Assembly (NCBI GenBank): GCA_043817235.1
Contig: JBDRHA010000008.1
Location: 112-64,111 of the forward strand
Length of the DNA stretch: 64,000 nucleotides
Origin: Candidatus Shapirobacteria bacterium
Lineage (GTDB): Bacteria > Patescibacteriota > Microgenomatia > UBA12405 > BS750m-G30
Direction: 5' to 3'
Under the pieces are notes generated by a model. That model saw only the letters and a list, made by a program, of their open reading frames with translations. It made no database searches and had not been told where the DNA came from. The position numbers and the translations under genes were made by a program. Of the stretch, positions 3,539 through 44,169 are shown piece by piece; the stretch's first letter is position 1, and each line of letters starts with the position of its first letter.

Positions 3539-3590
3539 AAACTCAAGCCTGAATTATTGTATAATTTATCTAGTTTGACAAATTAATACT

Positions 3591-24964: not shown

Positions 24965-25759
24965 TTAAATTAATTTTTGCTGATGGCTCTTTTTGCTTTC
25001 ATTGCTGACTTCTTCTTTCTTGATATATTCTCGGTAAAGACAGTATTCGCAAGTATTGCCCCGAGAAGGAATACTCTCCCCTTCAAGGCAATCTTTAATT
25101 TTATTAATCGCTCCTTTTACCCAGGTATCATCACCTGCATGGCTGACCAAAGAGAGCTCAAACTCCAGCAAACCATCAAATTTAGACTTATTCCTGCCGG
25201 CATTAGCAAAAACAAAATAAGCCATATTGCTCACCTTAAACCCAAGGCGGCGAAATATCCATTGATAAATCTCCGCTTGTCTTTTGTACCCCTGCTTGTA
25301 TTCATCGTCAAGAGAAATTTCTTTATTAGTACTCGTCGACTTGTAGTCAACTACCAGAAGCTGTCCTTGTTTATTTACCCACAAGTCATCTATAATTCCA
25401 CAAATTTCCAGGTTCGTCCCCTGATCTAAAACCCTTGCCCCGGTAAAAGCAAACATATCGTCTCTCCATACAGGTAAATCCGGATGATTAAAAGGTATTG
25501 CCTGCACACTGTATTTTTTCATAAGCATATGGGCTTCGCCTTTTTTCCTTAATAAATCAAATTCGTTTTTCAGCAAAGAATCTACAGCCGAATTTAGGGT
25601 AAAAGCGGGCATGCTTGGGCGAGAAAGACCAAGTCGCCGATCCAGATAAAAACAGCGCGGACATTCTATAAATAGGTCTATCTTCGAGCGACTGATGCGA
25701 AAAGTATTTTTTGACCCTGGCACATACAAATTACTTTGTCTTTTTTGATATACACGCAT
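24965..25759 (-). CDS. PD-(D/E)XK nuclease family protein with Cys clusters (Cas4/RecB-nuclease-like)
   Basis: 264 aa; N-terminal CPRCFY, catalytic-like IIDDLW...LVVDYKST (D...D/ExK), C-terminal CEYC; no cas genes nearby. Confidence 0.5.
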   Translation of the reverse strand: MRVYQKRQSNLYVPGSKNTFRISRSKIDLFIECPRCFYLDRRLGLSRPSMPAFTLNSAVDSLLKNEFDLLRKKGEAHMLMKKYSVQAIPFNHPDLPVWRDDMFAFTGARVLDQGTNLEICGIIDDLWVNKQGQLLVVDYKSTSTNKEISLDDEYKQGYKRQAEIYQWIFRRLGFKVSNMAYFVFANAGRNKSKFDGLLEFELSLVSHAGDDTWVKGAINKIKDCLEGESIPSRGNTCEYCLYREYIKKEEVSNESKKSHQQKLI

Positions 25760-27687: not shown

Positions 27688-29483
27688 TTATCAATCACCC
27701 CCTTCTCTATTTTCATTATCTCACATAAGTCGGCAAAAGGATAGCAATTAACAATATCTGACTTTTTCGCCCAGCCTCTTTTAGCCACAATCACCCCGTA
27801 TTTCATAAAATCCATTTGGGTGACATGATGAGAGTCGGCGTTAATGATTAATTTTAGCCCCCGAGAAATTGCTTGGCGAACCAAGATATCAGGAAGATCT
27901 AGGCGGTTGGGCGAAGCGTTAATTTCTAAAATCTTATTTTCTTTTAAGCAGAAAGCATAAATTTCCTCCCAATCCGCTTCTATTTCCGACCGCTTATTTA
28001 GCATTCTTGTCGTCGGGTGGCCAAGAATTTTGACCTTAGGATGAGATAATCCCCTAACAATGCGCTTGGTCATTGTCTTTTTGTCTTGGTTAAAAACACT
28101 ATGGATCGAGGCAATTACATAGTCAAGATACAAAAAACCACTTTCAGGCAAAGCAAGCTGCCCATCCGGCCGAATATCTACTTCCAAGCCGTTTATAATT
28201 TCTATCTTAAGCTTTCTACCTATCGTTTTCCTAAGCTCTTCTATTTTTTTCTCTTTACTTTTAAGTAGTACTATTATCTGATTTTTGTTATGCTGACTTA
28301 AAGAAGGATTATGCTCTGTAAATCCTAAATAATGATAGCCAAGCTCTTTTCCTTTTTTAAGCATTTGAGCAAAACTGCTTTTCCCCAGATCGTGGCTTGG
28401 CTCTATTGGAAAACTAGAGTGAAGCTGAAGGTCGCCCTTTATGTCTTTAAGCTCTGCCAGCTTTGGCAAGCTTCCTTTTTGGGCTTGCTCAATTTCTCCC
28501 TGGTTTTCCCTTAATTCCGGGGGAATATAGTCCATCCCCAAAAACTGATAAAAATCTTTTTCTTTTTCAAAAGAATATTTTTTTCGCTTACGCGTATCCT
28601 TCATTCCGTGTTCGGATAAGCTAAAACCTTTTTCCAAAGCAATTTCCCGCAAACGAATGTTATGGTGCTTGGATCCGGTAAAGTGCTGGAGCAAAGATCC
28701 GTAAGCTTTCGGGTCTTGCACATAAGCATCAATTTGGTGCCCTGAGCTAAGCAAAAAAGAAATTTTTTTCCTGCCCGCTTCTAAAACTTTGCTTAACTTA
28801 GGATAAATTTCCAATTTTTTAATCACTGCTTGGGGATCGTTAGTTGCTATTGACAGGTCAATATCGCCAACAGTAGCGCTCCCCCGACGAATGCTTCCTA
28901 GTACATCAGCCCTAATTACTTTTTTGTCTTTTTGTAAAAATCTAATGATCTTTTCGGAAATTTCTAAGGCTTCTGACAAAAGCATTCTCTTTTCCTTTTT
29001 TTCCTGCCTTAAATAATCGCTAATTCCCGCCTTAATATCTGCTTCTGATTTTTTTCCAAAGCCCATTATTTGTCTAATTTTTCCTTTTTTGGCCGCCTTT
29101 AATGTTCTTCTTAAAGCATTTTTTCGGGCTTTAATCCCTAGTTCCTGGCAGAGCTTATAAGCGGTTTTGGGGCCGATGCCGTTCACTTTAATCAGCTCAA
29201 ACATCGCTAACGGAACTGCTTTTTGAATTTTTTCAAAGTGGTCAGATTTTCCTTTTTGGAAAACTTCACTTAAATATCCCGATATTTTTTCACCAATGCC
29301 AGAGATATTTTTTAATTCTCCTTTTTCCCAAAGGGTTTTTGCAGAAGCGGAAAGACTTTCTAAAGAATCGGCCGCTTGGTCATAAGCGGTGACGCGAAAA
29401 CGACTTTTTCCTTTAACTTCCAAGGCGGCAGAAACACTTTTCAAAAGCTCTGCCAATTCTTGGTTTGACCAGCTTTTTTTCAC
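27684..29483 (-). CDS. polX: DNA polymerase X family protein with C-terminal PHP domain
   Basis: 599 aa; HhH motifs (GIGEKI, GIGPKTA), GSIRRGSATVGDIDL nucleotidyltransferase motif, C-terminal PHP histidines. Confidence 0.8.
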   Translation of the reverse strand: MKKSWSNQELAELLKSVSAALEVKGKSRFRVTAYDQAADSLESLSASAKTLWEKGELKNISGIGEKISGYLSEVFQKGKSDHFEKIQKAVPLAMFELIKVNGIGPKTAYKLCQELGIKARKNALRRTLKAAKKGKIRQIMGFGKKSEADIKAGISDYLRQEKKEKRMLLSEALEISEKIIRFLQKDKKVIRADVLGSIRRGSATVGDIDLSIATNDPQAVIKKLEIYPKLSKVLEAGRKKISFLLSSGHQIDAYVQDPKAYGSLLQHFTGSKHHNIRLREIALEKGFSLSEHGMKDTRKRKKYSFEKEKDFYQFLGMDYIPPELRENQGEIEQAQKGSLPKLAELKDIKGDLQLHSSFPIEPSHDLGKSSFAQMLKKGKELGYHYLGFTEHNPSLSQHNKNQIIVLLKSKEKKIEELRKTIGRKLKIEIINGLEVDIRPDGQLALPESGFLYLDYVIASIHSVFNQDKKTMTKRIVRGLSHPKVKILGHPTTRMLNKRSEIEADWEEIYAFCLKENKILEINASPNRLDLPDILVRQAISRGLKLIINADSHHVTQMDFMKYGVIVAKRGWAKKSDIVNCYPFADLCEIMKIEKGVIDK

Positions 29484-29556
29484 AGCCTAATAATAGCACT
29501 TTTCCGTGCTTAAATATTGCTCATTATTTAAAAAGATGCTAATATCAAAACTACTC

Positions 29557-29660
29557 GGGGCTGTAGCCCCGCCTGCCAGCGCCTGAGGCGCAGCCGATGG
29601 CGGGCACGGTCAATTGGCTAGAGCAGTCCGACGTCTCGTCGGACAGGTTGCGGGCTTGGG
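29557..29660 (+). pseudogene. Degenerate partial copy of tRNA-Asp carrying a 42-nt GC-rich hairpin insertion
   Basis: ggggctgtagc + cccgcctgccagcgcctgaggcgcagccgatggcgggcacgg + tcaattggctagagca matches the intact tRNA-Asp 5' acceptor/D-arm; anticodon arm replaced by gtccgac-gtctc-gtcggac; similarity ends after the T-stem 5' half (aggttgcggg). Confidence 0.5.
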
Positions 29661-29666
29661 TTAATA

Positions 29667-29936
29667 ATGACAAAAGGATTTGTTTACATATTAAAGAGCA
29701 TTAAAAATTCTAGTTATTATATAGGAAGTACTAACAACCTTGAAAGAAGGATGGATGACCATAAACAGGGCAAAGCAAAGTATACTAAAAACATTAGACC
29801 TGTTGAATTAAAGTTTTTTCAAGAGTACCGTTCTTTATCAAAGGCGAGAAAAATAGAATATAGGCTTAAAAAGCTATCACGTAAAGATTTAATTGATAAT
29901 ATAATAAAAGACGGCTACATAAAAATGGGGCTGTAG
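29667..29936 (+). CDS. GIY-YIG nuclease family protein (stand-alone YhbQ/UPF0213-like)
   Basis: 89 aa; FVYILKS...YYIGSTNNLERRMDDHKQGK GIY-YIG core; stop codon TAG lies inside the first bases of tRNA-Asp. Confidence 0.65.
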   Translation: MTKGFVYILKSIKNSSYYIGSTNNLERRMDDHKQGKAKYTKNIRPVELKFFQEYRSLSKARKIEYRLKKLSRKDLIDNIIKDGYIKMGL

Positions 29937-30003
29937 CTCAATTGGCTAGAGCATCCGCCTGTCACGCGGAAGGTTGCGGGTTCGAGTCCCGTTAGCCCCG
30001 CCA
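29927..30003 (+). tRNA. tRNA-Asp (anticodon GTC), CCA encoded
   Basis: ggggctg-ta-gctc...tccgc-ctgtcac-gcgga-aggtt-gcggg-ttcgagt-cccgt-tagcccc-g-cca. Confidence 0.9.
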
Positions 30004-30172
30004 ATCGGAGCACCCTGGTGACCGTGATACCTCGAATATCCCAAAAATACCTTCAAAACCTCTAGTTTTTAATTTTAACATTCGTACCGCACGCTCACTG
30101 TCCGGTAAAATACCGTAAAATAGGACTTTTGGGTGAGTTATAAGGATATTTCCAATTGAAAAACCTCTTTGA

Positions 30173-30423
30173 ACATCAAAAGAATCTTTTAGGATTTCCC
30201 GTTTCCGAATGGAAAGGTTTCTGGAATGTCCTAGATGCTTCTATCTTGACCGAAAAATGGATTTAGATCGTCCGGTCTTCCTGGGTGGCCTCTAAACAGT
30301 GCTGTTGACCGCCTTCTTAAAAACGAGTTTGATTTACTTCGAAACGATGGGAAGCCTCATGCCTTAATGAAAGAATGCGGCATTGATCTAGTTCCTTTCT
30401 CACACCTTGATTTGTTAGAATGA
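30173..30423 (+). pseudogene. Frameshifted, truncated fragment of a paralogue of the PD-(D/E)XK nuclease at 24965-25759
   Basis: Translation TSKESFRISRFRMERFLECPRCFYLDRKMDLDRPVF then +2 shift LNSAVDRLLKNEFDLLRNDGKPHALMKECGIDLVPFSHLDLLE*; aligns with residues ~15-100 of the intact protein (FRISRSKIDLFIECPRCFYLDRRLGLSRP...LNSAVDSLLKNEFDLLRKKGEAHMLMK...IPFNHPDL). Confidence 0.6.
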
Positions 30424-30504
30424 AGAGATGATTATTATAAAATATGTAGGCGTATCGATTTTGTATAAACCAACCAATCTCGAACTTTGTGGAATTAATG
30501 AATT

Positions 30505-30975
30505 ATGACTTCATATAAACATACTCAAATTGGATATCTGATGCTAATTGTGATGCTGGCCGTGCTGATTCTTTTCGCATGGGCTTATATTACGGCTTCA
30601 GCCGAACCTCCCTCGTATTACTCTGGCACAAATTTTGCCGTTACTGCCTTAATGGTATTAATTCTATTTATTCTTGCATCGTTTACCACGCTGACAGTGT
30701 CAATTGATGAAAACTATCTTCGAATCAAATTTGGATATGGGCTTTTTAAGAAGAAATTTTTACTAAGTAAAATGGTTTCTGTAAAAACTGTAAAGAATCC
30801 TTGGTATTACGGCTGGGGAATTAGGTTGTGTTTATGGCCCACTATATGGATCTATAACGTTTCAGGTTTTGATGCGGTTGAAATAATGATGAAGAACGGA
30901 AGGACGTATCGCATAGGCACAGATAATCCAAAAAAACTTGAGATGTCAATTAAGCGGGTTATCTTTACTACCTAA
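30505..30975 (+). CDS. Membrane protein with bacterial PH-like (DUF304/bPH_2-like) domain
   Basis: 156 aa; two N-terminal TM helices followed by small beta-rich domain (LTVSIDENYLRIKFG...). Confidence 0.35.
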   Translation: MTSYKHTQIGYLMLIVMLAVLILFAWAYITASAEPPSYYSGTNFAVTALMVLILFILASFTTLTVSIDENYLRIKFGYGLFKKKFLLSKMVSVKTVKNPWYYGWGIRLCLWPTIWIYNVSGFDAVEIMMKNGRTYRIGTDNPKKLEMSIKRVIFTT

Positions 30976-30978
30976 CGC

Positions 30979-32994
30979 TTACGCTTCTGCAAATTGGCTA
31001 TTATAAAGTTCTGTATAAAAACCGTTAAGACTCAGTAATTTTTCGTGTGTTCCATGCTCTATCACATCTCCGTTTTTCATTACTAAAATTAAGTCTGCAT
31101 CCCGAATAGTCGAAAGCCGATGGGCAATTACAAAACTTGTCTTATCTTTCATAAGCATGTCCATGGCTTTTTGAATTAAAACTTCTGTTCGAGTATCTAC
31201 AGAACTTGTGGCTTCGTCCAGTATTAGCATTGGCCTTTTGGCTAACATCGCTCTTGCAATGGTAAGCAGTTGTTTTTCACCTTGGGAAATATTACCGGCT
31301 TCCTCGTTTATTTCCATATCATACCCATTAGGAAGTGACTTCACAAAGTGATCGACATGTGCTTCCTGTGCGGCAGTTATAAGGTCTTTTTCGGAAGCTT
31401 CCGGGTTCCCGTAAGTAATATTGTCTCGTATCGTACCTTTAAAAAGCCAGGTGTCCTGAAGAACCATCCCAAAAAGTTTTCTCACTTCAGACCTTTTCAT
31501 CTCTTTTATGTCAACGCCGTCTATCTTAATTAAGCCGCTACCAACTTCATAAAATCTCATTAAAAGATTAACTAACGTAGTCTTTCCCGCTCCGGTTGGA
31601 CCAACGATAGCAACTCTATGCCCTGGCTCAATTTTTATAGAAAGGTTTTTAATGACTTTCTGATCAGGATTATAACCAAAAACTACGTTTTTAAATTCTA
31701 TTTTTCCCTTAACTTTCGATAAAACGATTGATTTATTAGTTTCCTTTGACTCTTCTTCTTCAGCTAGAAATTCAAAAACCCTCTCAGCTGCAGCAGCCGT
31801 TGACTGCAACACATTTGCGATATTGGCGGTTTGAGTAATCGGCCGGTTAAACTGCTGAACGTATTGAATAAAAGCCTGAATATCTCCAATTTGTAATTTG
31901 CCATTAATAGCAAGCCAGCCTCCTACAACTGATACGCCTACGTAACCCAAATTACCAATAAATGTCATTAACGGGTGCATAAGACCCGATAGAAATTGGG
32001 ATTTCCAGGCACTTTGATAAAGTTTGGAATTGATCTTATCAAATTTTTTAATGGAATCTTTCTCTCCATTGAACACTTTGACAACTAAATGCCCGGAATA
32101 CATTTCTTCAACATGTCCGTTCATCAGACCAAGACTGGCTTGTTGATTTACGAACTGAATTTGGGAACGTTTCATAATTTGGGTAATTAAGAGAAAACTC
32201 AAGGGTAAAATAATAACTGTTACCAGGGTGAGAAGCGGACTTATCGAAAGCATCATAACAATAATACCAATAATCATAACAGCCGATGTTACAATTTGAG
32301 ACAGGCTTTGGTTTAATGTTTGGCTTACCGTGTCAACATCATTGGTGACCCTGCTTAAAACTTCTCCATATCTGTGTTTATCAAAGTAACTTAAGGGAAG
32401 TCTGTTAATTTTTTCCGAAAGATCCTTTCTGAATTGATAGGTTACTTTCTGGGTAATTCCTGTCATGATCCAGCCTTGAATATAGCCAAAAGCTGCACTT
32501 AGCAAATAGAGGCCGATAAGCAGAAGAATAATGTTTCGTATACTCTCAAAATGAAAGCTAGGACGTTTGGATAGATCAAGAGACTCTATTTTGGCAAAAG
32601 TTTCAGCGGGAATTTCATTAAGTAATTGCTGTGGAAGCTTCGTAATTAAATCTGTACCTTTTATTCCTGCAGGTAGCTCAATTTCAGCGGGGAGTTTGGA
32701 GATGACTTTGTCATAAGTTTGTATGTCAGTATAATCACTTACTATCTGGTTTGTAACCTGACCTAATATTTTTGGACTGACAATGGAGAAAATAGTACTG
32801 GCTATTACAAAAATTAATACCAATGACATTTTGGACCAAAAGGGTCGTAAATAACTTGCCAGTTTTTTTATTGTGCCCTTGAAATCTTTTGCCTTTTCAA
32901 CTGGCCCTCTTGCCATCATATTTCCTCTTCTGCCAAAAGGCATACCACCTGACTGGCCCTTTGAAGATTTGATTTTATCCTGATCTTTATTCAT
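30979..32994 (-). CDS. ABC exporter, fused permease/ATPase (heterodimer subunit)
   Basis: 671 aa; 6-TM domain then Walker A GPTGAGKTTLVNLL, signature ISQGEKQ, Walker B ILDEATSSVD. Confidence 0.85.
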   Translation of the reverse strand: MNKDQDKIKSSKGQSGGMPFGRRGNMMARGPVEKAKDFKGTIKKLASYLRPFWSKMSLVLIFVIASTIFSIVSPKILGQVTNQIVSDYTDIQTYDKVISKLPAEIELPAGIKGTDLITKLPQQLLNEIPAETFAKIESLDLSKRPSFHFESIRNIILLLIGLYLLSAAFGYIQGWIMTGITQKVTYQFRKDLSEKINRLPLSYFDKHRYGEVLSRVTNDVDTVSQTLNQSLSQIVTSAVMIIGIIVMMLSISPLLTLVTVIILPLSFLLITQIMKRSQIQFVNQQASLGLMNGHVEEMYSGHLVVKVFNGEKDSIKKFDKINSKLYQSAWKSQFLSGLMHPLMTFIGNLGYVGVSVVGGWLAINGKLQIGDIQAFIQYVQQFNRPITQTANIANVLQSTAAAAERVFEFLAEEEESKETNKSIVLSKVKGKIEFKNVVFGYNPDQKVIKNLSIKIEPGHRVAIVGPTGAGKTTLVNLLMRFYEVGSGLIKIDGVDIKEMKRSEVRKLFGMVLQDTWLFKGTIRDNITYGNPEASEKDLITAAQEAHVDHFVKSLPNGYDMEINEEAGNISQGEKQLLTIARAMLAKRPMLILDEATSSVDTRTEVLIQKAMDMLMKDKTSFVIAHRLSTIRDADLILVMKNGDVIEHGTHEKLLSLNGFYTELYNSQFAEA

Positions 32995-34733
32995 AATTTT
33001 TGTGACTTTAATTCCTCGTCAGAAAGTTGCGAGTATGCTATTTCCTTATAAATTTCATTTTGTTTAAGTAGTTGCCTGTGAGTCCCCTGGCCGACAATTT
33101 TTCCTTTATCCAAAACAATAATTTTGTCGACATTCATAATTGTGCTTATGCGCTGGCCAACCACCAACATGGTTTTATTCTTAATTTCTTTTGTTAATGC
33201 CTTGCGAAGTTGGGCATCTGTTTTATAATCTAGTGCAGAAAATGAATCGTCAAAAATATAAACTTTTGGCTTTACCGCAATTGCCCGGGCAATTGAGAGC
33301 CTTTGTTTTTGTCCTCCAGAAACATTAGAACCACCCTGAGATATTTTGCTGTCATATTTTTTATTAAGTCTATTTATGAACTCTGAAGCTTGGGCAATAC
33401 TAGCGGATCTTGCAATGTCTATATCCTTTGCATTTTTGTTTCCATAATTTATATTGCTTTTAACCGTTCCGGAAAACAACACTCCTTTTTGAGGAACATA
33501 ACCAATCTGGCTATATAAGTCATTAAGCTTTAAATCCCGTATATCAACTCCATCCAGAAGAATTTGACCTGCTGTTACGTCATAAAATCTAGGTATTAAA
33601 TTTATGAGAGTCGTCTTTCCGCTCCCAGTACTACCAATAAAAGCGGTTGTCTGCCCAGGCTCTGCAGAAAAGTTGATACCGGTTAAGATAGGCACGTCTG
33701 CATCAGGATATGTAAAAGTAACATCTTTAAATTCAATTCTACCTCTTCCCTTTGGATTCGGATTAGTTGGCTTTTTGGGGTCCTTAATTAAAGGGTCAGT
33801 TTCTAAAACCTCTGCTACCCTTTTACCAGATACAGACGCCCTTGGAATCATGATAAAAACTATCGAAATCATTAAAAATGACATAATAACTTGCATCGTA
33901 TATTGCATAAAGGCGAGCATGTTTCCAATTTGAATTGAACCACTGTCTATTAAATGTAATGAGAACCAGACGATAGCAACAACAGAAAGATTAAGTACTA
34001 GCAGCATCGTTGGCTGGAGAATAGACATTAACCTGTTTACAAATAAGTTAACTTTTGTTAATTCTTTATTTGTTTTTTCAAATTTCTCTTGTTCCTTGTG
34101 CTCATTATTGAAAGCCCTAACTATCCGCAAGCCCGATAAATTTTCCCGAGTCACCAGATTAAGTTTATCTATTAATTCTTGTACGAACTTAAATTTGGGA
34201 AGACCGAAAACAAAAAGTACTGCAATCATCCCCAAAAGTGTTAAGGTGGCAAGACCGATGATCCAACTCAAAGAAGGTGCTGTGATAAGAGCCTTCTGAA
34301 GCGCACCAATAGCCATAATGGGTGCCATGAGAACGAGCCTAAAAACCATAATTAAAACCATTTGTATTTGCTGGATATCGTTTGTGGATCTTGTAATAAG
34401 AGAGGCTGTGGAGAACTTGTTAAACTCTGAAATAGAGAAGCTTTCAACTTTAGTAAAAACTTGCTTCCTTACATCCCGAGAAAATCCTGTGGCAATACGG
34501 GAGGCTAAGTACCCAACGACAGCCGCAGACACAACCCCAACAAGGGTAATCAAGAGCATTAATCCACCATTGGTGTAAATTGCCTTTGTATTCTTAAGAA
34601 TTATTCCATCATTAACGATATTGGCCATATAGTCAGGTAAGGCTAGATTTGCTATTACTTGAAGATAGGTAAATACAGCCAATACCAGAATGAGCCAAAT
34701 ATAAGGCCTTAAGAATTTTATTAATTTTGTCAT
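32991..34733 (-). CDS. ABC exporter, fused permease/ATPase (heterodimer subunit)
   Basis: 580 aa; Walker A GSTGSGKTTLINLI, signature VSGGQKQRLSIARA, Walker B IFDDSFSALD; overlaps partner by 4 nt. Confidence 0.85.
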   Translation of the reverse strand: MTKLIKFLRPYIWLILVLAVFTYLQVIANLALPDYMANIVNDGIILKNTKAIYTNGGLMLLITLVGVVSAAVVGYLASRIATGFSRDVRKQVFTKVESFSISEFNKFSTASLITRSTNDIQQIQMVLIMVFRLVLMAPIMAIGALQKALITAPSLSWIIGLATLTLLGMIAVLFVFGLPKFKFVQELIDKLNLVTRENLSGLRIVRAFNNEHKEQEKFEKTNKELTKVNLFVNRLMSILQPTMLLVLNLSVVAIVWFSLHLIDSGSIQIGNMLAFMQYTMQVIMSFLMISIVFIMIPRASVSGKRVAEVLETDPLIKDPKKPTNPNPKGRGRIEFKDVTFTYPDADVPILTGINFSAEPGQTTAFIGSTGSGKTTLINLIPRFYDVTAGQILLDGVDIRDLKLNDLYSQIGYVPQKGVLFSGTVKSNINYGNKNAKDIDIARSASIAQASEFINRLNKKYDSKISQGGSNVSGGQKQRLSIARAIAVKPKVYIFDDSFSALDYKTDAQLRKALTKEIKNKTMLVVGQRISTIMNVDKIIVLDKGKIVGQGTHRQLLKQNEIYKEIAYSQLSDEELKSQKL

Positions 34734-34745
34734 TTTACTGCTTTC

Positions 34746-35966
34746 TCACTCATATCTTAATGCCTCAATTGGTAATAGTTTTGCTGCTCGTTGGGCCGGA
34801 TAATAACCAAATACAACTCCTACGACAGAAGAAACTCCGACGGCAAGAAGAATTGAGCTAAGAGAGACAACAAACGGGATATCTATAAGTCCAGAGATCA
34901 AAAATGACAAACCAATCCCTAGTGACATTCCGATTAAACCACCTACAAGAGTTAAAACAATTGCCTCGATTAAAAATTGTGTAAGAATGTCTCCATCTCT
35001 TGCTCCGATGGATTTTAAAAGGCCAATTTCTCGCGTTCGCTCAGTCACAGTCACAAGCATAATGTTCATAATGCCAATGCCACCAACTACAAGAGAAATT
35101 GCAGCAATTCCAGATAGCAATGCTGTCAAAAGTCCTGTCACCGACCCAACAGTATCCAATGCCTGTTGTGCACTGTTTACTGAAAAGTCATTATTCGCCC
35201 CCTCGATAATATCATGCTGATCTACCAACAAAGAAGTAATGTCATTAACTGTTTGATTTACCAGCTCTCCATTTTCAACTTGTATCAAAATCTGGGAAAC
35301 ATAATCTTGTCCAAGTAATATCTTCATGGCAGTATTTACCGGAATATAGACACCTTTGTTGGGGTTTGAGAAAGCACTACTATCCTTTTCTTGAAGCACT
35401 CCTATTACTCTAAAAGACTTGTTGTCAAGTTTTATAGATTCTCCAACAGGCTCAGCTTCTTCACCAAATAAATCAGCAACAACATCCGCTCCAATTACGG
35501 CAACACGAGAAAGACTGATTTCATCATCATTACTAAAAAACTCCCCTTGGTTAATCTCAAGTGATTGGATAGTTGAATAATCTGATCCAACACCTTGAAC
35601 TGTGGCATTTACGGTTTGTCCATTGGCACTTACCTGAAGCGGTTTCGAGGCTACTCCAGATACAGCTGAGATATTTTGCAATCTAGATTTGTCGGCAAGT
35701 GCTTCTACATCTTCAAGCTTGAGTGTGTCAGTCTGGTTTTGCCGTGGCCCCTGTCCACTTCCACTTGACCCCGGAAGTATAAATACTGTATTTGTTCCAA
35801 AAGAAGACAGCTGACCAGTAATGCTTGCTGTGGCTCCTTGCCCCAGCGAGATAATTAAAATAACAGAGGCAATACCAATAATTATTCCCAGCATAGTTAG
35901 TAGGGTACGAAGAATATTTCCTCTTAAAGCCCCAATTGCAGATGATATAAGTTCGTTGTAATTCAT
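34746..35966 (-). CDS. ABC transporter permease, FtsX/MacB-like
   Basis: 406 aa; N-terminal TM, large periplasmic domain, C-terminal 3-TM FtsX fold (TERTREIGLLKSIGARDGDILTQFLIEA). Confidence 0.8.
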   Translation of the reverse strand: MNYNELISSAIGALRGNILRTLLTMLGIIIGIASVILIISLGQGATASITGQLSSFGTNTVFILPGSSGSGQGPRQNQTDTLKLEDVEALADKSRLQNISAVSGVASKPLQVSANGQTVNATVQGVGSDYSTIQSLEINQGEFFSNDDEISLSRVAVIGADVVADLFGEEAEPVGESIKLDNKSFRVIGVLQEKDSSAFSNPNKGVYIPVNTAMKILLGQDYVSQILIQVENGELVNQTVNDITSLLVDQHDIIEGANNDFSVNSAQQALDTVGSVTGLLTALLSGIAAISLVVGGIGIMNIMLVTVTERTREIGLLKSIGARDGDILTQFLIEAIVLTLVGGLIGMSLGIGLSFLISGLIDIPFVVSLSSILLAVGVSSVVGVVFGYYPAQRAAKLLPIEALRYE

Positions 35967-35968
35967 GG

Positions 35969-36661
35969 TTAGTTAATAGTATCTGAAACAATCTCACCGT
36001 CTTTTAAGCGAATCGTGCGTTTTGCAAAGGCCGCGATATCGTCTTCGTGGGTAATAAGAACAATTGTGTGCCCCTTTTTATTAAGCTCACGGAAAAAAAC
36101 CATTATTTCGTGAGCTGTTTTGCTATCCAAATTTCCGGTTGGTTCATCAGCAAGGATGATAGCTGGGTTCATTACCAACGCCCGAGCAATAGCTACCCGT
36201 TGGATTTGACCACCGGAAATATGGTTAGAAAGATTGTCTGCTTTGTCGTCAATGCCAACTAACTCCAAACATTCCATCGCTCTTTTTTTCCGTCCCTCAA
36301 TATCTATACCGGCATACATCATCGGCCGTTCAACATTTTTAAAAACAGTGGTTCGCGGCAGTAAGTTAAAAGCTTGGAAAATAAAGCCAATTTCGTGGTT
36401 TCGGATATAGGCCAGATCATCACTATTGTAAGTGCTGATATCCTTGCCTTTTAAAAAATATTTACCACTCGTGGGAGTATCAAGCGCGCCTAGAATATGC
36501 ATTGTGGTTGACTTACCTGATCCCGAAGGACCCATAATCGCCACAAACTCGCCCTGATCAATATTAAGAGAGATTCCTTTTAATGCTCTGTAGGTGTCGT
36601 TTCCAACCCCATAATCTTTAACAATCTCTTTTAGTAAAATAACAGGTGTTCTTTTTTTCAT
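35969..36661 (-). CDS. ABC transporter ATP-binding protein (MacB/LolD-type)
   Basis: Start set at MKKRTPVILLKEIVKDYG to avoid overlap with adaptor gene; Walker A GPSGSGKST, signature ISGGQIQRVAIARAL, Walker B ILADEPTGNLD. Confidence 0.85.
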   Translation of the reverse strand: MKKRTPVILLKEIVKDYGVGNDTYRALKGISLNIDQGEFVAIMGPSGSGKSTTMHILGALDTPTSGKYFLKGKDISTYNSDDLAYIRNHEIGFIFQAFNLLPRTTVFKNVERPMMYAGIDIEGRKKRAMECLELVGIDDKADNLSNHISGGQIQRVAIARALVMNPAIILADEPTGNLDSKTAHEIMVFFRELNKKGHTIVLITHEDDIAAFAKRTIRLKDGEIVSDTIN

Positions 36662-36668
36662 ACATATT

Positions 36669-37871
36669 TTACCTACCAAACGGTCCTCCGCCATTAGCTT
36701 CAACAACTCCATTCTTAGCACCAGTTATTACTTCCATACCTTCTTCGACTCCACTTATTATCTGAGTTCTTTCGGGACTCTTAATTCCCACTTCAACTGG
36801 GATATATTTTGGCATGTCGGTTTGCGGGTCGATTACTTGTACTGCCTTGCCCCCTTGGTAGGGTTTAATTGCACTGTTTGGAACTATCAAGGCATTTTCA
36901 GCTTTATCGACTACAATATCTACATTTGCCGTCATCATAGAACGGATGGAGCTCTCGGGATCAATTATTTCAACCACAACCGTATAAGTGATAACTCCAT
37001 TAGCATTTATACCAATTGTGTCTACATGGGTTACCTTGCCTTGGAACTTTTTACCTGGAAAAGCGTCAAGGGTAAAAGTGGCAGACTGATCTACCTTTAC
37101 CTTAGGAATGTCAACCTCATTTAGCTCAAGAGTTACTGTATATCTTGAGAAGTTCCCAACCACCAAAACTGGGATTCCTCCTGTGCTGCTATTTCCAGCA
37201 ACTACATGGTCACCAGCCTTAGACAAAAAATTAGCCACAGTTCCACTTGCTGGAGCGCGGACTATGATATTTTGTGTTGCGAAGTAAGCTAGTTCGGCTG
37301 ATTTCAAGGAAGCTTCGGCAGCGGCAATGGCATCATATGCGGAGTCCCTTGCTGCTTGAGCTGTAGTTCTTAATGCTTTCTGTGCAAATGTCTCATCTGA
37401 GTCATGATCTTTTACATCGTCTTCCACTTTTTGCGCAGTTGCTTCGCGATCCCGATAGGTATTCAAGGCTTGATTATAGGCAGAAGAAGCACCTTGGTAT
37501 GTAGCGAAAGCCGCGGCTTTTTCTTGATCTGTAGCAGTACTCCTCACTTTAAAAAGATTCTGACCTGCCTTAACTTCTGCGCCATTTTCAATATATACAA
37601 CCTCTATAATTCCAGTTGAGCTTGAGTAAACATCAACTATACCAGAAGAGTTTACATTCCCAGTTTCGGATACAATTTGCTCAATATTCCTTCGTTCGAC
37701 TTTCTGAAAAAGATATTCCGGTTGATTGTTTGTATTTCCAATACGATTGAATGCAAAATAAGCAACTCCAAGAATCAAGGTGACAGTAATTATTTTTTTA
37801 ACTAGGCTAAGTTTCAAAAACCATTTTTTGACACGAAGAGCCCCACCTTTTATTTTTTTAAAGATTTTCAT
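36669..37871 (-). CDS. Efflux transporter periplasmic adaptor subunit (membrane fusion protein, HlyD/MacA-like)
   Basis: 400 aa; N-terminal TM anchor, coiled-coil region, beta-barrel/lipoyl-like segments typical of MFPs. Confidence 0.7.
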   Translation of the reverse strand: MKIFKKIKGGALRVKKWFLKLSLVKKIITVTLILGVAYFAFNRIGNTNNQPEYLFQKVERRNIEQIVSETGNVNSSGIVDVYSSSTGIIEVVYIENGAEVKAGQNLFKVRSTATDQEKAAAFATYQGASSAYNQALNTYRDREATAQKVEDDVKDHDSDETFAQKALRTTAQAARDSAYDAIAAAEASLKSAELAYFATQNIIVRAPASGTVANFLSKAGDHVVAGNSSTGGIPVLVVGNFSRYTVTLELNEVDIPKVKVDQSATFTLDAFPGKKFQGKVTHVDTIGINANGVITYTVVVEIIDPESSIRSMMTANVDIVVDKAENALIVPNSAIKPYQGGKAVQVIDPQTDMPKYIPVEVGIKSPERTQIISGVEEGMEVITGAKNGVVEANGGGPFGR

Positions 37872-37872
37872 T

Positions 37873-38367
37873 TTAATTTTCCTGCTCTTCCAGTGAGTGA
37901 AGTATTTTTTTGTGGATGCGTATTAGCTCTTTTAAGTCGCTTTCTGATATTAAGTCTAAAACCTTACCCATTTTGTGAAACATCCGCTTACGTGTCTCAA
38001 CTATCTCTGATCTGCCTTTATCAGTTAGATTAAGACGCACTATTCTACGATCGTTAACGTCGGGTTTTCTTGAAATCAGTTTGTTTTCGGTTAATCTGTC
38101 TGTAAATTGAGCAATAGATGAAGATGACATGTTTACAGCTTGAGCTAGCTCACTCACAGTTGAGTTTGGACTTTCGCTCAAATAAGATAATCCTTGCATT
38201 TGCAAAATTGTCGCAGCCTTATCTTCCAAGGAGCAGTTAACACTTCTTTCTGCAATGCGACTAATTTTGGTCACTGTTGCAAAAAATTCTTCGAATAATT
38301 CTTGTTTTATATTGTTCATAATTAACTTAGACATTAAGTATCTTAACATATAAGATATTGTTGTCAA
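37873..38367 (-). CDS. MarR-family transcriptional regulator
   Basis: 164 aa; wHTH with NDRRIVRLNLTDKGR recognition/wing motif; first gene of efflux operon. Confidence 0.7.
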   Translation of the reverse strand: MTTISYMLRYLMSKLIMNNIKQELFEEFFATVTKISRIAERSVNCSLEDKAATILQMQGLSYLSESPNSTVSELAQAVNMSSSSIAQFTDRLTENKLISRKPDVNDRRIVRLNLTDKGRSEIVETRKRMFHKMGKVLDLISESDLKELIRIHKKILHSLEEQEN

Positions 38368-38396
38368 TAGTTAATTTAATGTATTAATAATCCCCC

Positions 38397-38526
38397 TTTT
38401 TTATACTGTCTCATTTGTCTCACCGTGTCCATCCATAGCTTTAGCGAAGGAGGATTTAACCTCAGATGTGATATGCTTGGAGAAAGCAGTTATGAGCTCG
38501 AAAGGTTCTAGACCGGCCTGCTCAGC
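38397..38526 (+). repeat. Bipartite conserved element, copy A (tttttatactgtctcaYttgtctcac ... agttatgag...gaaaggtYctagaccgg..tgctcagc)
   Basis: 5' block (with TATACT -10-like hexamer and tandem tgtctcaYt direct repeat) and 3' block (ggtYctagacc hairpin) both near-identical to copy at 47925-48022; middle differs. Confidence 0.45.
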
Positions 38527-38697
38527 CAGTACGGGCACCTCTGCCGACCGAGGTACCTCAAATATCCCTTATTATCTTGTAAAACGCCCATTTTCAAAGC
38601 CGAGAATTCGAACCGCTTTTTACCCTCAAAAAAGCCCCGTTCGAATCCGACTTCTGCCATTGTTTTAACTTGCTTCCTGTGATATAATTCGTTCAGT

Positions 38698-39336
38698 ATG
38701 TTAGAGAATAGGACCAGGAAAAGAATTTTTGAAATGCTTAGCCAGGCAATAAGCAGCGGGGAAGTAATTTCTCTTCGGAATATTGGGGACGAGCTTGGCT
38801 TGGCTGCCAACACGATTCTTTATCACATCAAAAAGCTTGAAGAGAAAGGGCTTGTTATCAGAAATATTGATGGCAAGGTGATCCGCATCAATTCCCCGGA
38901 AGATAATTCTGCTATTGCCTTCTTGCCTCTCTTAGGAAATGCCGCCTGTGGGGAACCCCTGGGTTCAATCGTTGAAACCGAGACGATCCGTATGATCCCG
39001 GTACCACTTAACATTCTGGGAAGAAATTCCAAGCGCAACCTCTACATGATTGAAGCAGTTGGAGACAGTATGGCAGAAAAGATTGAAAACGGTGATTATG
39101 TTATTTTCGAGCCTAACCCCTCGCCTAATCCTGGGCAGATTGTTGTGGCCAGAACAAAAGATGGATTTACAATTAAAGTTTTTAAGAAAACAGCCTCTCA
39201 GTGTATTTTGAAACCATTAAATCCAAATTATCTCCCTCTGGTTTTTGACAAAAGTGAGATAGATGAATCTTTCAACATTGACGGTGTAGCTGTGGGGATT
39301 TTTAAACCGCAGGGAAATTTAGGAGGAGGCGGGTAA
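38698..39336 (+). CDS. LexA-like repressor paralogue (wHTH + S24 peptidase), island-associated
   Basis: 212 aa; S24 catalytic Ser in AVGDSM and Lys in FTIKVFKK; N-terminal wHTH (LGLAANTILYHIKKLEEKGLV). Confidence 0.6.
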   Translation: MLENRTRKRIFEMLSQAISSGEVISLRNIGDELGLAANTILYHIKKLEEKGLVIRNIDGKVIRINSPEDNSAIAFLPLLGNAACGEPLGSIVETETIRMIPVPLNILGRNSKRNLYMIEAVGDSMAEKIENGDYVIFEPNPSPNPGQIVVARTKDGFTIKVFKKTASQCILKPLNPNYLPLVFDKSEIDESFNIDGVAVGIFKPQGNLGGGG

Positions 39337-39480
39337 AAATGGCAAAAGTTATATGCCCATTGTTTCCTAATGGTATCAGCAACATAAGATACAGGCAAAT
39401 TAGAAACCCAAGGGATTTTATTCATGTTGCCTTTATTAAAAATTCTTTTGGAAAGAGGACAAGGAAGGGGATGTCGAAAA

Positions 39481-39675
39481 ATGAAACCTAGAAATACATA
39501 CAAGTATGACTTTAAGGTCGGAAACAAAATAATGCACAGCGGGATTACTAGGAACCTAGATAGGCGTGAATTGGATCATAAACAAAAGTGGCCCAAAGGT
39601 CATACTGTTCAGATTGGCCGAAGAACAACCGAAGAAGCTGCCAGAAAATGGGAGGAAACAAAACAGAAAAGTTAA
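39481..39675 (+). CDS. Small GIY-YIG-like protein (weak)
   Basis: 64 aa from MKPRNTYKYDFKVGNKIMHSGITRNLDRRELDHKQ; Y-x10-(H/Y)SG-x-T...R...H spacing resembles GIY-YIG core; purine-rich RBS upstream. Confidence 0.3.
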   Translation: MKPRNTYKYDFKVGNKIMHSGITRNLDRRELDHKQKWPKGHTVQIGRRTTEEAARKWEETKQKS

Positions 39676-39709
39676 AATAATGATTGAGAAACGAGCAAAA
39701 TGAAAGGAG

Positions 39710-40090
39710 GTGAAATTTATGAAAAAGCGCATATTTATTAGCTTTGACTATGACCATGACAAAAACTATCGCTATTTATTGGCAGCCTTAGCCAAGAATC
39801 CACGATCTGATATTGAGTTTGACGATCTAACGCCAGAAGAGATTCAAAGCTACGATATTGGTCGAATAAAGGCAGTCTTAACGAGGAAAATAAGACAAGC
39901 TACGCATACATTAGTAATCATTGGAAAGCATGCAAATAGTTATCACCCGGACAGAGATGAAATTGGAGATCGAAATTGGCAGTGGTGGGAAATTAATAAG
40001 AGCGATGAGGAAAGAAAAGGATTTATCGCCGTAAAGATAGATTCATCCAACGACTCGCCGGAACCTTTGTATGGGAAAGGCGCAACTTGA
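39710..40090 (+). CDS. TIR-like domain protein (DUF1863/ThsB-like)
   Basis: 126 aa; N-terminal KKRIFISFDYDHDKNY strand (compare ThsB-type R-V-F-F-S-F-H-Y-x-D), THTLVIIGKH block, WQWWEINKSDEERKGFIAVKID with conserved Glu in W-E-I; GGAGG RBS 8 nt upstream. Confidence 0.55.
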   Translation: MKFMKKRIFISFDYDHDKNYRYLLAALAKNPRSDIEFDDLTPEEIQSYDIGRIKAVLTRKIRQATHTLVIIGKHANSYHPDRDEIGDRNWQWWEINKSDEERKGFIAVKIDSSNDSPEPLYGKGAT

Positions 40091-40143
40091 GCAAAAACTT
40101 TTTCTGTTGATTCAATAGTAAATGCGATTGATAATGCTTAATT

Positions 40144-40797
40144 ATGGTAGCCACCGACGATACAAAACTTGAAATTCTGCACGATCACTATAAAGAAAGC
40201 TTCTCGTACATTCGTGGATGGGAAGAAAAACGTGATAGGCTTTTTATATTTGTGATTGCTATGATTGGTGTCTTATTTCTCGAGATACAGTATTCCGATC
40301 TTTTTTCAAGTATTTTGGGGAATATCAAATTGGAGTTTATAGAATTAAATATCGCCTTAATGCCTATTTCTGTTTTTTTGAGTCTTACATGGACTTATTT
40401 GTTTACGATTATATTGAAATATTGCCAACAGTCCATCCTTATTGAAAGACAATATAACTACCTGCATCACTTAGAGGGTAAAATATCCAAGTTTTTTGGC
40501 GGCCGGAACATTTACTGCCGTGAGAGCAGAGCGTACCTCAATAAGTATCCCCTCTTTTCGGAGTTAGCCTGGATTTATTATGGCTTTTTGTTTCCATCAA
40601 TAGCGATACTCTCAGTCTGGCTAGTTATTTATCTTGAGTGGAACAAAATTTCAGGGCCACTATATCACTTGGTCTATGATTCATTTTTGAGCATAGCAGT
40701 AATTACGTGTTTGATATTTTATAGATTTTATCCTTTAGGTAAAAAAATAGTACTGAAGGTGAAAGATAGAATTAATTTGGCTTTTCGGGCGAAATAG
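40144..40797 (+). CDS. Four-TM membrane protein adjacent to TIR-like gene (candidate effector; SLATT-like?)
   Basis: 217 aa; ~35-aa cytoplasmic N-terminus, TM1-TM2, ~50-aa basic loop, TM3-TM4; 53-nt gap after TIR-like gene, same strand. Confidence 0.4.
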   Translation: MVATDDTKLEILHDHYKESFSYIRGWEEKRDRLFIFVIAMIGVLFLEIQYSDLFSSILGNIKLEFIELNIALMPISVFLSLTWTYLFTIILKYCQQSILIERQYNYLHHLEGKISKFFGGRNIYCRESRAYLNKYPLFSELAWIYYGFLFPSIAILSVWLVIYLEWNKISGPLYHLVYDSFLSIAVITCLIFYRFYPLGKKIVLKVKDRINLAFRAK

Positions 40798-40878
40798 TTT
40801 GGCGCCTGCCGAACTTAACAATGAGCAATGTACGATAGAGAAATGGAGTTGTGAGGCCCAGATTAAAGTCTTGTGTAA

Positions 40879-42186
40879 TTACCTTATCGGAGCTGAGCAG
40901 ACTTCCTTGTCGTGGACATAAAGATGTTTGCCGAACACTTTAACGATTTCCCTTTTTTCTTCATCAGCACCATCCCTAAGGACATATTTGGCGTATTCCG
41001 TAAAAGAAACTTCCCCTGAGCCAGGATTAATGTCTTTGAGTAGTAGCACTTGTTCTCGGATTTTCCGATAGGTTTCTATTCCAATTTTAACTTTTGGAGT
41101 CAGCTTAATTTTTTGAGGGTGGTGCATGCTCATAAAATTGATATATCTGATTAGCGCTCCGATCAGTCGTTTTTCGTTGAGCATGGGTTCTTTACATCGT
41201 TTGTTTCTGGCTTTGGAGCATTGGTAGTAGACATGCCTTCTTGGATCACGATGTTTTCTTTTTCTGAATTTTTCTTCGCCGGTGACGGTAGCTCCGCAAC
41301 TGGCACATTTGAAAATGCTTCTAAAGAGTACGTTCCGACTACCCCATTTTGACTTTTTAGGAACCACCAACTTTCTTCTGGTTTCGTTAAATATCTTTTT
41401 GGTAATCAATGGTTTATGCCCACCCTTATACCAATTACCGCTGCCAATCGAGTATTCGAATTCACCATAATAAAACGGATCGCCAAGCATTCGGTAAACT
41501 TGGCTCAAAGTTAATGGCTTGCCGGATTTATTATTAAAACCAACCTTGTCAGCCCATTTTTTAATTTGCCTACCGCTTTCTCCATTTATTACCCTGCTAA
41601 ACATTTCGGTTATGTATTTACCTCTGTCTGGGTCAACAGCGATATCTTTCTTACCAGCAAATGAGCGGTTAATATAACCGATTGGCGATGGCCCTGGTCG
41701 CCAGCCCATTTCACACTTGGCTCGGATTCCTCTTTTGACATTTATTCCCCTGTTATCGTTTTCTAACTTCGCCTGACTACATAAAATCATTAGCAGAAAC
41801 TTTTCGTTGGGATTATTAGAGAAACTTTGAGAGAAAGTTCGTATCTGGAGTAGTTTTTCCTGATCCATCAAATCAACCAGCATTCCCAAATCGCCAGCAT
41901 TACGACTCAATCGATCCGGTGCCCAAGTTAAAATGCCGCTAAATTTCCCCTGAGCAACATCAGCCAGAAGCTTGTTAAAAACTGGTCGGGTACTGGAGAT
42001 CTTGGCCGAATGGCTTTCTTGATAAATCTCTAAGATTTCAAGGCTATCCCGTTTGGCCAGAGTTTTCATTTCCTTTATCTGTGATCCGATTGACATTGCT
42101 TGTCGTTCGTCTGACTCGCTAGACTTTCTGGCATAAAGGCAATAGTTGATCAAGTCGTTTTGGGTAGCGCTTTCTATCATCAACAC
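40879..42186 (-). CDS. Large serine recombinase (resolvase/invertase catalytic domain + recombinase + zinc-ribbon)
   Basis: 435 aa; catalytic CLYARKSSESDE (Y-x-R-x-S), recombinase-domain region, Cys cluster CASCGA...C...C. Confidence 0.8.
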   Translation of the reverse strand: MLMIESATQNDLINYCLYARKSSESDERQAMSIGSQIKEMKTLAKRDSLEILEIYQESHSAKISSTRPVFNKLLADVAQGKFSGILTWAPDRLSRNAGDLGMLVDLMDQEKLLQIRTFSQSFSNNPNEKFLLMILCSQAKLENDNRGINVKRGIRAKCEMGWRPGPSPIGYINRSFAGKKDIAVDPDRGKYITEMFSRVINGESGRQIKKWADKVGFNNKSGKPLTLSQVYRMLGDPFYYGEFEYSIGSGNWYKGGHKPLITKKIFNETRRKLVVPKKSKWGSRNVLFRSIFKCASCGATVTGEEKFRKRKHRDPRRHVYYQCSKARNKRCKEPMLNEKRLIGALIRYINFMSMHHPQKIKLTPKVKIGIETYRKIREQVLLLKDINPGSGEVSFTEYAKYVLRDGADEEKREIVKVFGKHLYVHDKEVCSAPIR

Positions 42187-42234
42187 AAGGAATGACGCAA
42201 AGGGAAGGCTAAGTCAAGGCCCAAACGATGAATT

Positions 42235-43305: not shown

Positions 43306-43481
43306 TTACCCTCCAGTTATTTTTAGCTGGAGGGTTTAAATGATAAAGGCTCCCCTCCAGCTGATGGTCCTTACGGAATCCACCCGCCAACCTTTCGATT
43401 GGTGACCTGCAGAAGGCAACACTGACGAGGAGCTCTCGTCCCTTCTGCAGGACTTTCTTGCCATGCCCCGATTATTCGGGG
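43306..43481 (-). promoter_or_regulatory. GC-rich structured 5' leader of the 42235-43305 gene with alternative RBS-sequestering helices
   Basis: On the minus-strand RNA: hairpin ccccgaauaaucgggg; long hairpin ccugcagaagg...ccuucugcagg; then cagcuggagggg / cccuccagcu / cuggaggg(uaa)AUG, where the middle segment can pair with either neighbour. Confidence 0.35.
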
Positions 43482-43617
43482 TTTAGGCAATATTTAATGG
43501 TAACGTTTTTTATTTTGATATTTTTAGTGATTTAATAAAGAAGCAAAACAACACAGATCTCCTGATTCCAGCCATAATCAATCTAAGGACCTCAGTTTAA
43601 TTAAGGCTAAATATTGC

Positions 43618-44160: not shown

Positions 44161-44169
44161 AAACTGTGC

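Follow-up and report, generated by a model that had tools for sequence, protein, structure and literature searches.

A small GIY-YIG nuclease gene with conserved hairpin units in a candidate selfish cassette at a tRNA-Asp gene of a Candidatus Shapirobacteria bacterium

Small proteins that consist of a single GIY-YIG domain include the UPF0213 (YhbQ/YazA-type) proteins, to which, to our knowledge, no function has been assigned and which no report that we know of connects with tRNA genes or hairpin repeats. The Ssn proteins (~94 amino acids) are also single-domain GIY-YIG enzymes, and they bind hairpin repeats that flank their own gene and cut single-stranded DNA (ssDNA) 5' of those repeats (Chenal et al. 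2025, PMC11893778). Here we analyze a locus in a 64-kb stretch of DNA from a Candidatus Shapirobacteria bacterium (contig JBDRHA010000008.1; the whole 64,000-nucleotide stretch is called the window below) in which a gene for such a small protein lies between an intact tRNA-Asp gene and a hairpin-bearing partial copy of that tRNA gene. We think it reasonably probable that positions 29557-29926 are a small selfish cassette in the tRNA-Asp gene, composed of an Ssn-like GIY-YIG nuclease gene and one or two conserved hairpin units, where "Ssn-like" denotes likeness in size, domain layout and flanking hairpins and not assignment to the Ssn clade (cd10448). Our search of the openly searchable literature (subscription-only papers lay outside it) found no description of a module that joins a GIY-YIG gene, a tRNA gene and hairpins in this way.

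The anatomy of the locus is as follows, with all features on the plus strand: The intact tRNA-Asp(GTC) gene, presumed to be the functional copy, occupies positions 29927-30003 (called by ARAGORN; Rfam RF00005 tRNA, 70.1 bits) and is the only tRNA-Asp gene seen in the window. Exactly 370 nucleotides (nt) 5' of it begins a partial copy that is divided into three blocks. The first (29557-29567; tRNA positions 1-11, which are the 5' acceptor strand, U8, A9 and the start of the D stem) is identical to 29927-29937 at 11 of 11 positions, the second (29610-29625; positions 12-27, the remainder of the D arm) is identical to 29938-29953 at 16 of 16, and the third (29645-29661; the variable region, the 5' T-stem strand and the start of the T loop) corresponds to 29971-29987 and is exact over its first 10 nt (29645-29654, tRNA positions 45-54), with 14 of 17 identities overall. 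A 42-nt hairpin that we call H1' separates the first two blocks inside the D stem (29568-29609; CCCGCC...GGCGGG around GCGCC-TGA-GGCGC), and a second hairpin, H2 (29626-29644; GTCCGAC-GTCTC-GTCGGAC), stands between the second and third blocks in place of the anticodon arm. The 3' half of the T arm (the 3' T-stem strand) and the 3' acceptor strand are absent from the copy. A preliminary description of this DNA had reported a partial tRNA-Asp copy 370 nt upstream of the gene, a 42-nt GC-rich hairpin that interrupts it and a different anticodon-arm hairpin, and all three are borne out, the copy by exact matches in each of its three blocks. ARAGORN calls no tRNA of any isotype in the partial copy by default, with introns allowed or with thresholds lowered to 70-80%, and an Rfam search at E<=10 matches neither the copy nor its hairpins, so the copy is not an independent tRNA; on this point also the preliminary description, which had regarded the copy as degenerate, stands.

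Two other readings of the partial copy were tried and set aside. At a 60% threshold ARAGORN returned spurious calls that we treat as noise, among them a permuted tmRNA-like call at 29563-30027 (tag peptide DGYIKMGL, then a stop); its topology mirrors that of the locus, with a 5' tRNA-like piece, a reading frame and a 3' tRNA piece. Positions 29564-29573 share a 10-nt identity (TAGCCCCGCC) with the 3' end of tRNA-Asp at 29993-30002, and a fusion of the 5' and 3' acceptor strands was considered there and rejected, since CCCCGCC is one base away from CCCCGAC, the common start of the hairpin unit described below, and has its compensating GGCGGG; the identity is probably a coincidence of that usual start. 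The junction between tRNA positions 1-10 and the first hairpin forms a palindrome, CGGGGCTGTAGCCCCG (29556-29573), that is scored as terminator-like on the minus strand.

The start codon of the open reading frame (ORF) lies 5 nt past the end of the partial copy, and the ORF (29667-29936, plus strand) encodes a predicted single-domain GIY-YIG nuclease of 89 amino acids (PF01541, residues 3-73; E 9e-19; 68 bits, with the cutoff at 22.6). Pfam yields no match beyond GIY-YIG and its relative T5orf172, TIGR01453 matches below its cutoff (29.9 vs 56 bits) and over the first 40 residues only, and the C-terminus extends ~15 residues beyond the catalytic domain; in the Pfam and TIGR01453 scans the protein has no C-terminal sequence-specific DNA-binding domain of the kind found in Seg enzymes and I-TevI. 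The catalytic-type residues Y7, Y18, R28, H32 and E64 are invariant among 28 homologues; homologue lengths range from 85 to 128 amino acids, and identity across phyla is ~50%. An NCBI entry from a Candidatus Shapirobacteria metagenome-assembled genome is 100% identical to the window protein. The closest solved proteins are UPF0213 BH0048 and EF2693 (PDB 1zg2 and 1ywl; profile E 5e-12 and 6e-9, residues 1-73), followed by SLX1 and I-TevI, and the earlier YhbQ-type label is therefore reasonable. The TAG stop had been placed within the acceptor stem of tRNA-Asp; it does lie within the tRNA gene, but the ORF runs through the entire 5' acceptor strand and stops immediately beyond it, at 29934-29936, which are tRNA positions 8-10 (U8-A9-G10). 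Lacking its own stop codon, the nuclease ORF borrows this trinucleotide, as do the ORFs of 26 loci with the same 10-nt overlap in the genome set described below. Because RNase P cutting at the tRNA 5' end would remove the stop codon, cleavage of a co-transcript could yield a non-stop mRNA, a potential brake on nuclease expression.

Is this arrangement peculiar to the window? Two independent scans were made as follows: genomes were scanned with only two C-terminal peptide motifs (from a 12-sequence alignment) as the seed, which gave 80 loci, mostly in Patescibacteria with some in Omnitrophota and a few in other metagenome-assembled genome bins, and metagenomes were scanned with the window protein as the seed, which also gave 80 loci. 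The genome-set analyses cover 82 loci (the 80 plus L001, L002, L005 and L007). The ORF ends within 30 nt of a tRNA gene on the same strand at 67 of 82 loci in the genome set and at 52 of 71 in the metagenome set, and at the 26 genome-set loci mentioned above the overlap is exactly 10 nt with the TAG at tRNA positions 8-10. About 20 isoacceptors are occupied, and these belong to Ala, Arg, Asn, Asp, Gly, His, Ile, Lys, Phe, Pro, Thr and Val. Upstream of the ORF an exact copy of at least 10 nt of the 5' part of the local tRNA is present at 43 of 67 and 32 of 47 loci, respectively, and it starts at tRNA position 1 in most of the cases printed. For example, the tRNA-Asp of L002 starts GGTCGCG... 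(GGGGCTG... in the window), and the upstream copy in L002 matches its own tRNA; this locus has a hairpin at the same D-stem position as the window and GTCCGAC-GTCAC-GTCGGAC in place of the anticodon arm.

The loci follow two architectures. In most Saccharibacteria and Paceibacteria (architecture A) the order is tRNA positions 1-15 (or 1-10), two hairpin units, tRNA positions 16-24 (or 11-16) and the ATG of the ORF. The closer relatives of the window (architecture B; L093, L095, L099, L114, L141, L143, L005 and L016) have tRNA positions 1-26, one unit that replaces the anticodon arm, tRNA positions 44-59 and the ORF. The window, L002 and L045 carry an additional hairpin at tRNA position 10/11, which is where the H1 units of many Saccharibacteria loci are found. 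Compared across the two scans, the layout of 5' tRNA duplicate, hairpin unit(s), GIY-YIG ORF and intact tRNA is a conserved module that recurs at well over 100 sampled loci.

The hairpin unit is a 7-bp stem, NN-CCGAC...GTCGG-N'N', with a loop of 4-40 nt. A unit is found within 150 nt upstream of the ORF at 73 of 82 and 57 of 68 loci, compared with 1 of 82 and 0 of 68 for ORF-internal controls. Strict units number 283 in 560 kb, of which 261 are no more than 200 nt from the ORF and another 13 are near a tRNA, and in many loci units are found downstream as well. The core of the stem is nearly invariant and its outer two pairs covary; the latter comprise at least six pair types and are Watson-Crick in 89.5% of 234 units (vs 36.7 +/- 2.3% in shuffles). 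H2 in the window is canonical, and the core of H1' carries a compensatory change from the CCGAC/GTCGG consensus to CCGCC/GGCGG. On this comparative evidence both window hairpins are copies of the unit that travels with the ORF, H1' being a variant copy, and are not the result of random degeneration. Outer pairs that are not Watson-Crick include 13 T.G and 12 C.A, with no strand bias, and the canonical two-unit pair (CCGACG...CGTCGG) reads identically on both strands. This lack of a wobble bias, together with the strand symmetry of the pair, fits recognition at the DNA level better than recognition of a strand-specific RNA. By analogy with the Ssn proteins the units are probably recognition sites in ssDNA for the nuclease, and the activity of the nuclease and its substrate are inferred. 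Two abutting units contain GTCGG-NNNN-CCGAC, which permits an alternative four-way pairing, and several tRNA-Thr(TGT) genes (e.g. those of L044, L058, L062 and L073) have a T stem, CGTCGG...CCGACG, that is the unit core in reverse order.

Orthologous loci without the cassette were found as follows: Four syntenic loci (L089-L092) were reached through PolX homologues, and L002 is a fifth. L089-L092 have the gene order GatC/amidase-M48-LemA-PolX, then the divergent tRNA-Asp, LysM and tRNA-Gly(CCC), with tRNA-Thr(CGT) next in line in L089 and L092. In L089, L091 and L092, whose intergenic sequences were read, the upstream region runs directly into tRNA-Asp with no partial copy and no hairpins, and in L090 no GIY-YIG ORF is called and tRNA-Asp lies ~60 nt from PolX. 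The orthologous tRNA-Asp site is occupied in the window and in L002 and empty in L089-L092, and because it is empty in these four syntenic relatives the window cassette is an insertion. The judgement of the preliminary description that this is not ordinary intergenic DNA is thus correct, and so is one part of its proposal of a scar left by tRNA-targeted insertion or duplication: the empty sites speak for insertion with duplication, and the recurrence of the layout speaks against a one-off scar. For its other proposal, a tRNA-like structured RNA, we found no specific support, given the absence of a wobble strand bias and the identical reading of the canonical two-hairpin pair on both strands.

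The empty sites also bear on the promoter. In two of them a sigma-70-like promoter is recognizable (TTGACT-17-TATTCT in L089 and TTGACG-17-TATAGT in L092) in the same layout as in the window, where a sequence read by eye at 29517-29545 (plus strand; TTGCTC, 17 nt, TAATAT preceded by TGC) ends 11 nt 5' of the partial copy and is probably the native tRNA-Asp promoter. An automated promoter scan omitted this site and gave another candidate at 29465-29494, and it found no promoter-like site between the ORF and the intact tRNA-Asp. Judged by this arrangement, the upstream duplicate keeps the original place of the tRNA beside its promoter, and the ORF and the intact tRNA-Asp would be co-transcribed from the native tRNA promoter.

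Recent movement is seen in L093, at a tRNA-Ala(GGC) gene, and L099, at a tRNA-Ala(CGC) gene of the same metagenome. Their ORF DNAs are 93.5% identical and their hairpin units are identical at 19 of 19 positions; their tRNAs are 76% identical, their flanks are unrelated, and the upstream 5' acceptor strand of each agrees with the tRNA at that locus. ORFs that are 70-74% identical are found at Asn vs Lys and at Thr vs Phe genes, and overall ORF identity follows tRNA identity weakly (58% vs 53%). These comparisons point directly to recent movement of the cassette between tRNA genes, and since the ORF and hairpin are shared while the tRNA arms are local, the transferable parts are the hairpin unit(s) and the ORF, and the tRNA-like scaffold arises by duplication of the target.

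At L030, L033, L040, L044, L064, L081 and L088, pseudo-copies of tRNAs that bear hairpins are also seen 3' of intact tRNAs and in the absence of any ORF. At L040 the upstream 5' fragment GCCCTCG pairs with CGAGGGC at the 3' end of the downstream pseudo-copy and not with the intact tRNA between them (GCGCTCG/CGAGCGC), which suggests that an older allele of the tRNA was split and superseded. ORF-less versions resemble MITEs, which are miniature non-autonomous elements (L088, 868-1068; L030, 2834-3065; L033, 2835-2945; L040 and L064, downstream of the tRNA). One ORF-less example consists of tandem units before tRNA-Arg(CCT), each made up of a leader, tRNA positions 1-10, two hairpin units and tRNA positions 11-24. 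In the ORF-less arrays the pseudo-copies lack tRNA positions 1-7 and have hairpin units in their D, anticodon or T loops, and their T-arm and acceptor alleles are not the ones that the intact tRNA carries. Omnitrophota locus L001 (= L011) has three tandem tRNA-Ala(CGC)-like units at 2891-3550 with two hairpin units per D loop. In the third of these the anticodon arm, the T arm and the CCA end are all complete and the 5' acceptor strand is unpaired; ARAGORN calls no tRNA at this locus. A second GIY-YIG homologue lies within 2.5 kb, in tandem or inverted, at L025 (2141-2380 and 2501-2758), L039, L063 and L086, and in the last three it is on the opposite strand.

How might such a selfish cassette work? 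On insertion the 5' part of the target tRNA would be directly duplicated (positions 1 to ~60 in the window), and the cassette would come to be wedged between the tRNA gene and its promoter, adding ~370 nt. The hairpin units would disable the upstream duplicate and split it into homology blocks of at most 16 nt, and these short blocks may hinder deletion by recombination between the repeats. Both the ORF and tRNA-Asp would depend on the tRNA promoter, and the host could not silence the cassette or delete it imprecisely without losing an essential tRNA. Staggered cuts with fill-in, or break repair that copies a resident cassette, are candidate routes for the duplication. Two models were rejected. 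A pure target-site-duplication model fails for the hairpin that is embedded between target-derived segments, and simple homing by synthesis-dependent strand annealing, in which the cassette would carry the tRNA 5' part with it, is rejected for jumps between different tRNAs because the upstream duplicate and the intact tRNA both carry the local acceptor sequence (L093/L099).

Several observations weigh against a selfish cassette of this kind. GIY-YIG enzymes are not known for strand transfer, which makes the integration and the target duplications of 10-60 nt hard to account for. The foreign pieces of the window's subfamily are separated by target-derived segments (the hairpin at the anticodon-arm position, the ORF after the T loop), and this separation implies a layout that goes beyond a single simple insertion. 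The intact tRNA retains any homing target site, which does not fit classical homing logic. About one third of the loci have no recognizable tRNA duplicate and ~15% have no adjacent tRNA. The published Ssn repeat pattern (SRM; HGTCWY..hairpin..RNCYNB) is matched nowhere in 83 loci (75 kb) or in the window. Finally, the 64-kb window holds a single cassette and nowhere else a copy of its insert, hairpin unit or GIY-YIG gene, so that any activity in this genome is putative.

It is possible, though we put it forward only tentatively, that the module represents a distinct and undescribed class of mobile element, in which an Ssn-like ssDNA nuclease and its cognate hairpins invade tRNA genes of any identity. 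Such an element would probably exploit the tendency of heavily transcribed tRNA DNA to be single-stranded and to form hairpins; it would duplicate the 5' part of the target and disable every spare tRNA copy with hairpin units, and the sole intact tRNA would then be tied to the nuclease gene both physically and transcriptionally, in an addictive, gene-drive-like manner. Successive invasions would leave the layered, hairpin-riddled pseudo-copies of L030, L033, L040 and L088. If the reading as a selfish cassette is correct, it would supply a biological context for the numerous small single-domain GIY-YIG proteins of Patescibacteria, whose present annotation goes no further than "GIY-YIG nuclease family protein", and would extend the pairing of Ssn-type nucleases with hairpins to a new motif and a new niche, the tRNA gene. 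It would also account for the tRNA pseudo-fragments and hairpin-bearing tRNA-like sequences that confuse tRNA annotation in the Candidate Phyla Radiation and Omnitrophota, and a compact nuclease of ~90 amino acids with a 19-nt hairpin partner would be a candidate ssDNA tool. The mechanistic puzzle is that of precise insertions with target duplications of 10-60 nt from a nuclease with no recombinase or transposase partner.

Might the module instead serve its host? The nucleases could be domesticated and fixed guardians of tRNA loci that are not currently mobile. By cutting ssDNA that bears hairpins they would modulate recombination at tRNA genes or the integration of transforming DNA there, or they would drive local tRNA-gene amplification. 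SsnA restricts transformation of NTS-flanked DNA in Neisseria (PMC11893778), T4 SegB is reported to promote segmental amplification of tRNA loci (PMC13096335), the tandem hairpin-bearing pseudo-copies around intact tRNAs (L030, L033, L040, L088 and L001) resemble repeated local rearrangement, and the family is old and widespread, with the ~50% identity across phyla given above. The occupied and empty orthologous sites and the near-identical cassettes at two different tRNA genes argue for ongoing mobility, however, and there is no evident benefit to a host whose essential tRNA is separated from its promoter by the ORF. We consider a host-serving role unlikely.

An element that acts as RNA, which would be a structured, tRNA-derived 5' leader that stabilizes the nuclease mRNA, autoregulates it through binding of the nuclease, or competes for the tRNA 3' half and so couples expression to tRNA processing, seems to us distinctly unlikely. 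The tRNA-derived region does sit between a promoter-like site and the ATG, a 121-nt region there folds at -59.2 kcal/mol (z = -3.2), the stems covary, and, given the 10-nt overlap, the ORF would lose its stop codon when RNase P processed the 5' end of the tRNA, a built-in post-transcriptional control. Against this, C.A is simply T.G on the other strand, so that the 13 T.G and 12 C.A outer pairs show no preference for one transcript, and the canonical two-unit pair is strand-symmetric, as recognition of DNA would predict. Hairpin-bearing pseudo-copies also lie 3' of tRNAs and are found with no ORF, there is no Rfam match at E<=10, and SsnA does not bind RNA (PMC11893778).

A nucleic-acid guide, in which the tRNA-derived arms around a hairpin scaffold of RNA or ssDNA would pair with the tRNA gene and direct the nuclease to it, is very improbable. 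In its favour, the arms derived from the tRNA match the local tRNA in every case, cassettes at different tRNAs have the hairpin and the ORF in common, and Ssn can be programmed to cleave by means of split-hairpin oligonucleotides (PMC11893778), but the protein has only 89 amino acids and no extra domain, the arms are decayed or missing at many loci, and they are more simply explained as target duplication. A one-off local duplication or degeneration scar beside a housekeeping YhbQ-like gene, with hairpins that arose by chance, would suit the single copy in the window and is refuted for practical purposes by the same anatomy at well over 100 independent loci, by the covarying hairpins and by duplicates that match the isotype of the adjacent tRNA.

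The DNA 3' of tRNA-Asp has a separate history. A Cas4-like PD-(D/E)XK pseudogene fragment lies outside the cassette at 30176-30496 (plus strand; tblastn E 4e-14 and 5e-13), and its intact relative is the gene for a PF12705 protein at 24965-25759 on the minus strand. The preliminary description had correctly seen a nuclease paralogue fragment homologous to this gene 5 kb away, which tblastn confirms; its estimate of ~85 codons with one frameshift does not hold, since the fragment covers amino acids 16-122 of the intact protein (52% identity in the best segment) and has at least two frame changes and an in-frame stop. Its view that the fragment belongs to the same tRNA-targeted scar must also be given up: a link to the cassette was considered and rejected, as no such homologue lies beside any other locus and the fragment is not part of the module. 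In the relatives L002 and L089-L092, LysM, tRNA-Gly and tRNA-Thr follow within ~1 kb after tRNA-Asp. In the window LysM (48136-48636) and tRNA-Gly(CCC) (48655) are ~18 kb from tRNA-Asp, and tRNA-Thr(CGT) is at 53409. The intervening block (30004-48135) interrupts the ancestral gene order and carries genes for a large serine recombinase (40879-42186), a LexA-like S24 repressor (38698-39336), ABC and MacB/FtsX transporters and ProRS. The pseudogene stands at the left edge of this 18-kb block and therefore belongs to a separate rearrangement or insertion beside the tRNA-Asp 3' end; the block itself may be an island or a rearrangement at that end.

How does the proposed cassette compare with systems that are already known? 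It is most like Ssn (SsnA, cd10448, with its NTS/SRM repeats), in that both have a single-domain GIY-YIG protein of ~90-95 amino acids with no DNA-binding domain, and a gene flanked by hairpin repeats of conserved sequence and variable loop in a layout like that of an insertion sequence. In the flanks that were sampled the cassette units do not occur outside the cassette and tRNA pseudo-copies, whereas Ssn repeats are dispersed in hundreds of copies. The cassette also stands apart in its strict association with tRNA genes and in the duplication of tRNA sequence; the Ssn paper nowhere mentions tRNA (PMC11893778). The UPF0213/YhbQ-YazA proteins (PDB 1zg2 and 1ywl) are the best match in the structural set and have the same size and a single domain. 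T4 SegB and other free-standing GIY-YIG homing endonucleases resemble the cassette in having a nuclease gene among tRNA genes with presence/absence polymorphism (PMC2330249, PMC13096335) and, for SegB, in local amplification or rearrangement of tRNA regions (PMC13096335). The Seg and Tev enzymes differ from the cassette protein in that they are phage-borne, have C-terminal DNA-binding modules and are at least 200 amino acids long, and they have neither hairpin units nor duplication of the tRNA 5' part. IS200/IS605 and REP/RAYT systems share with the cassette a small nuclease with cognate hairpins recognized as ssDNA and the occurrence of ORF-less derivatives, but their enzymes are HUH (Y1) transposases with covalent intermediates, their hairpins mark the ends of the element, and they do not combine tRNA-gene targeting with target duplication. 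Integrase-driven islands and prophages are like the cassette in using a tRNA gene as target, in the partial tRNA repeat that flanks the insert and in keeping the tRNA intact. In them it is the 3' part of the tRNA that is duplicated, the recombinases are of the tyrosine or serine type and the insert is kilobases long; the cassette, by contrast, has no recombinase and the GIY-YIG ORF as its only gene, measures ~370 nt and duplicates the 5' part of the tRNA.

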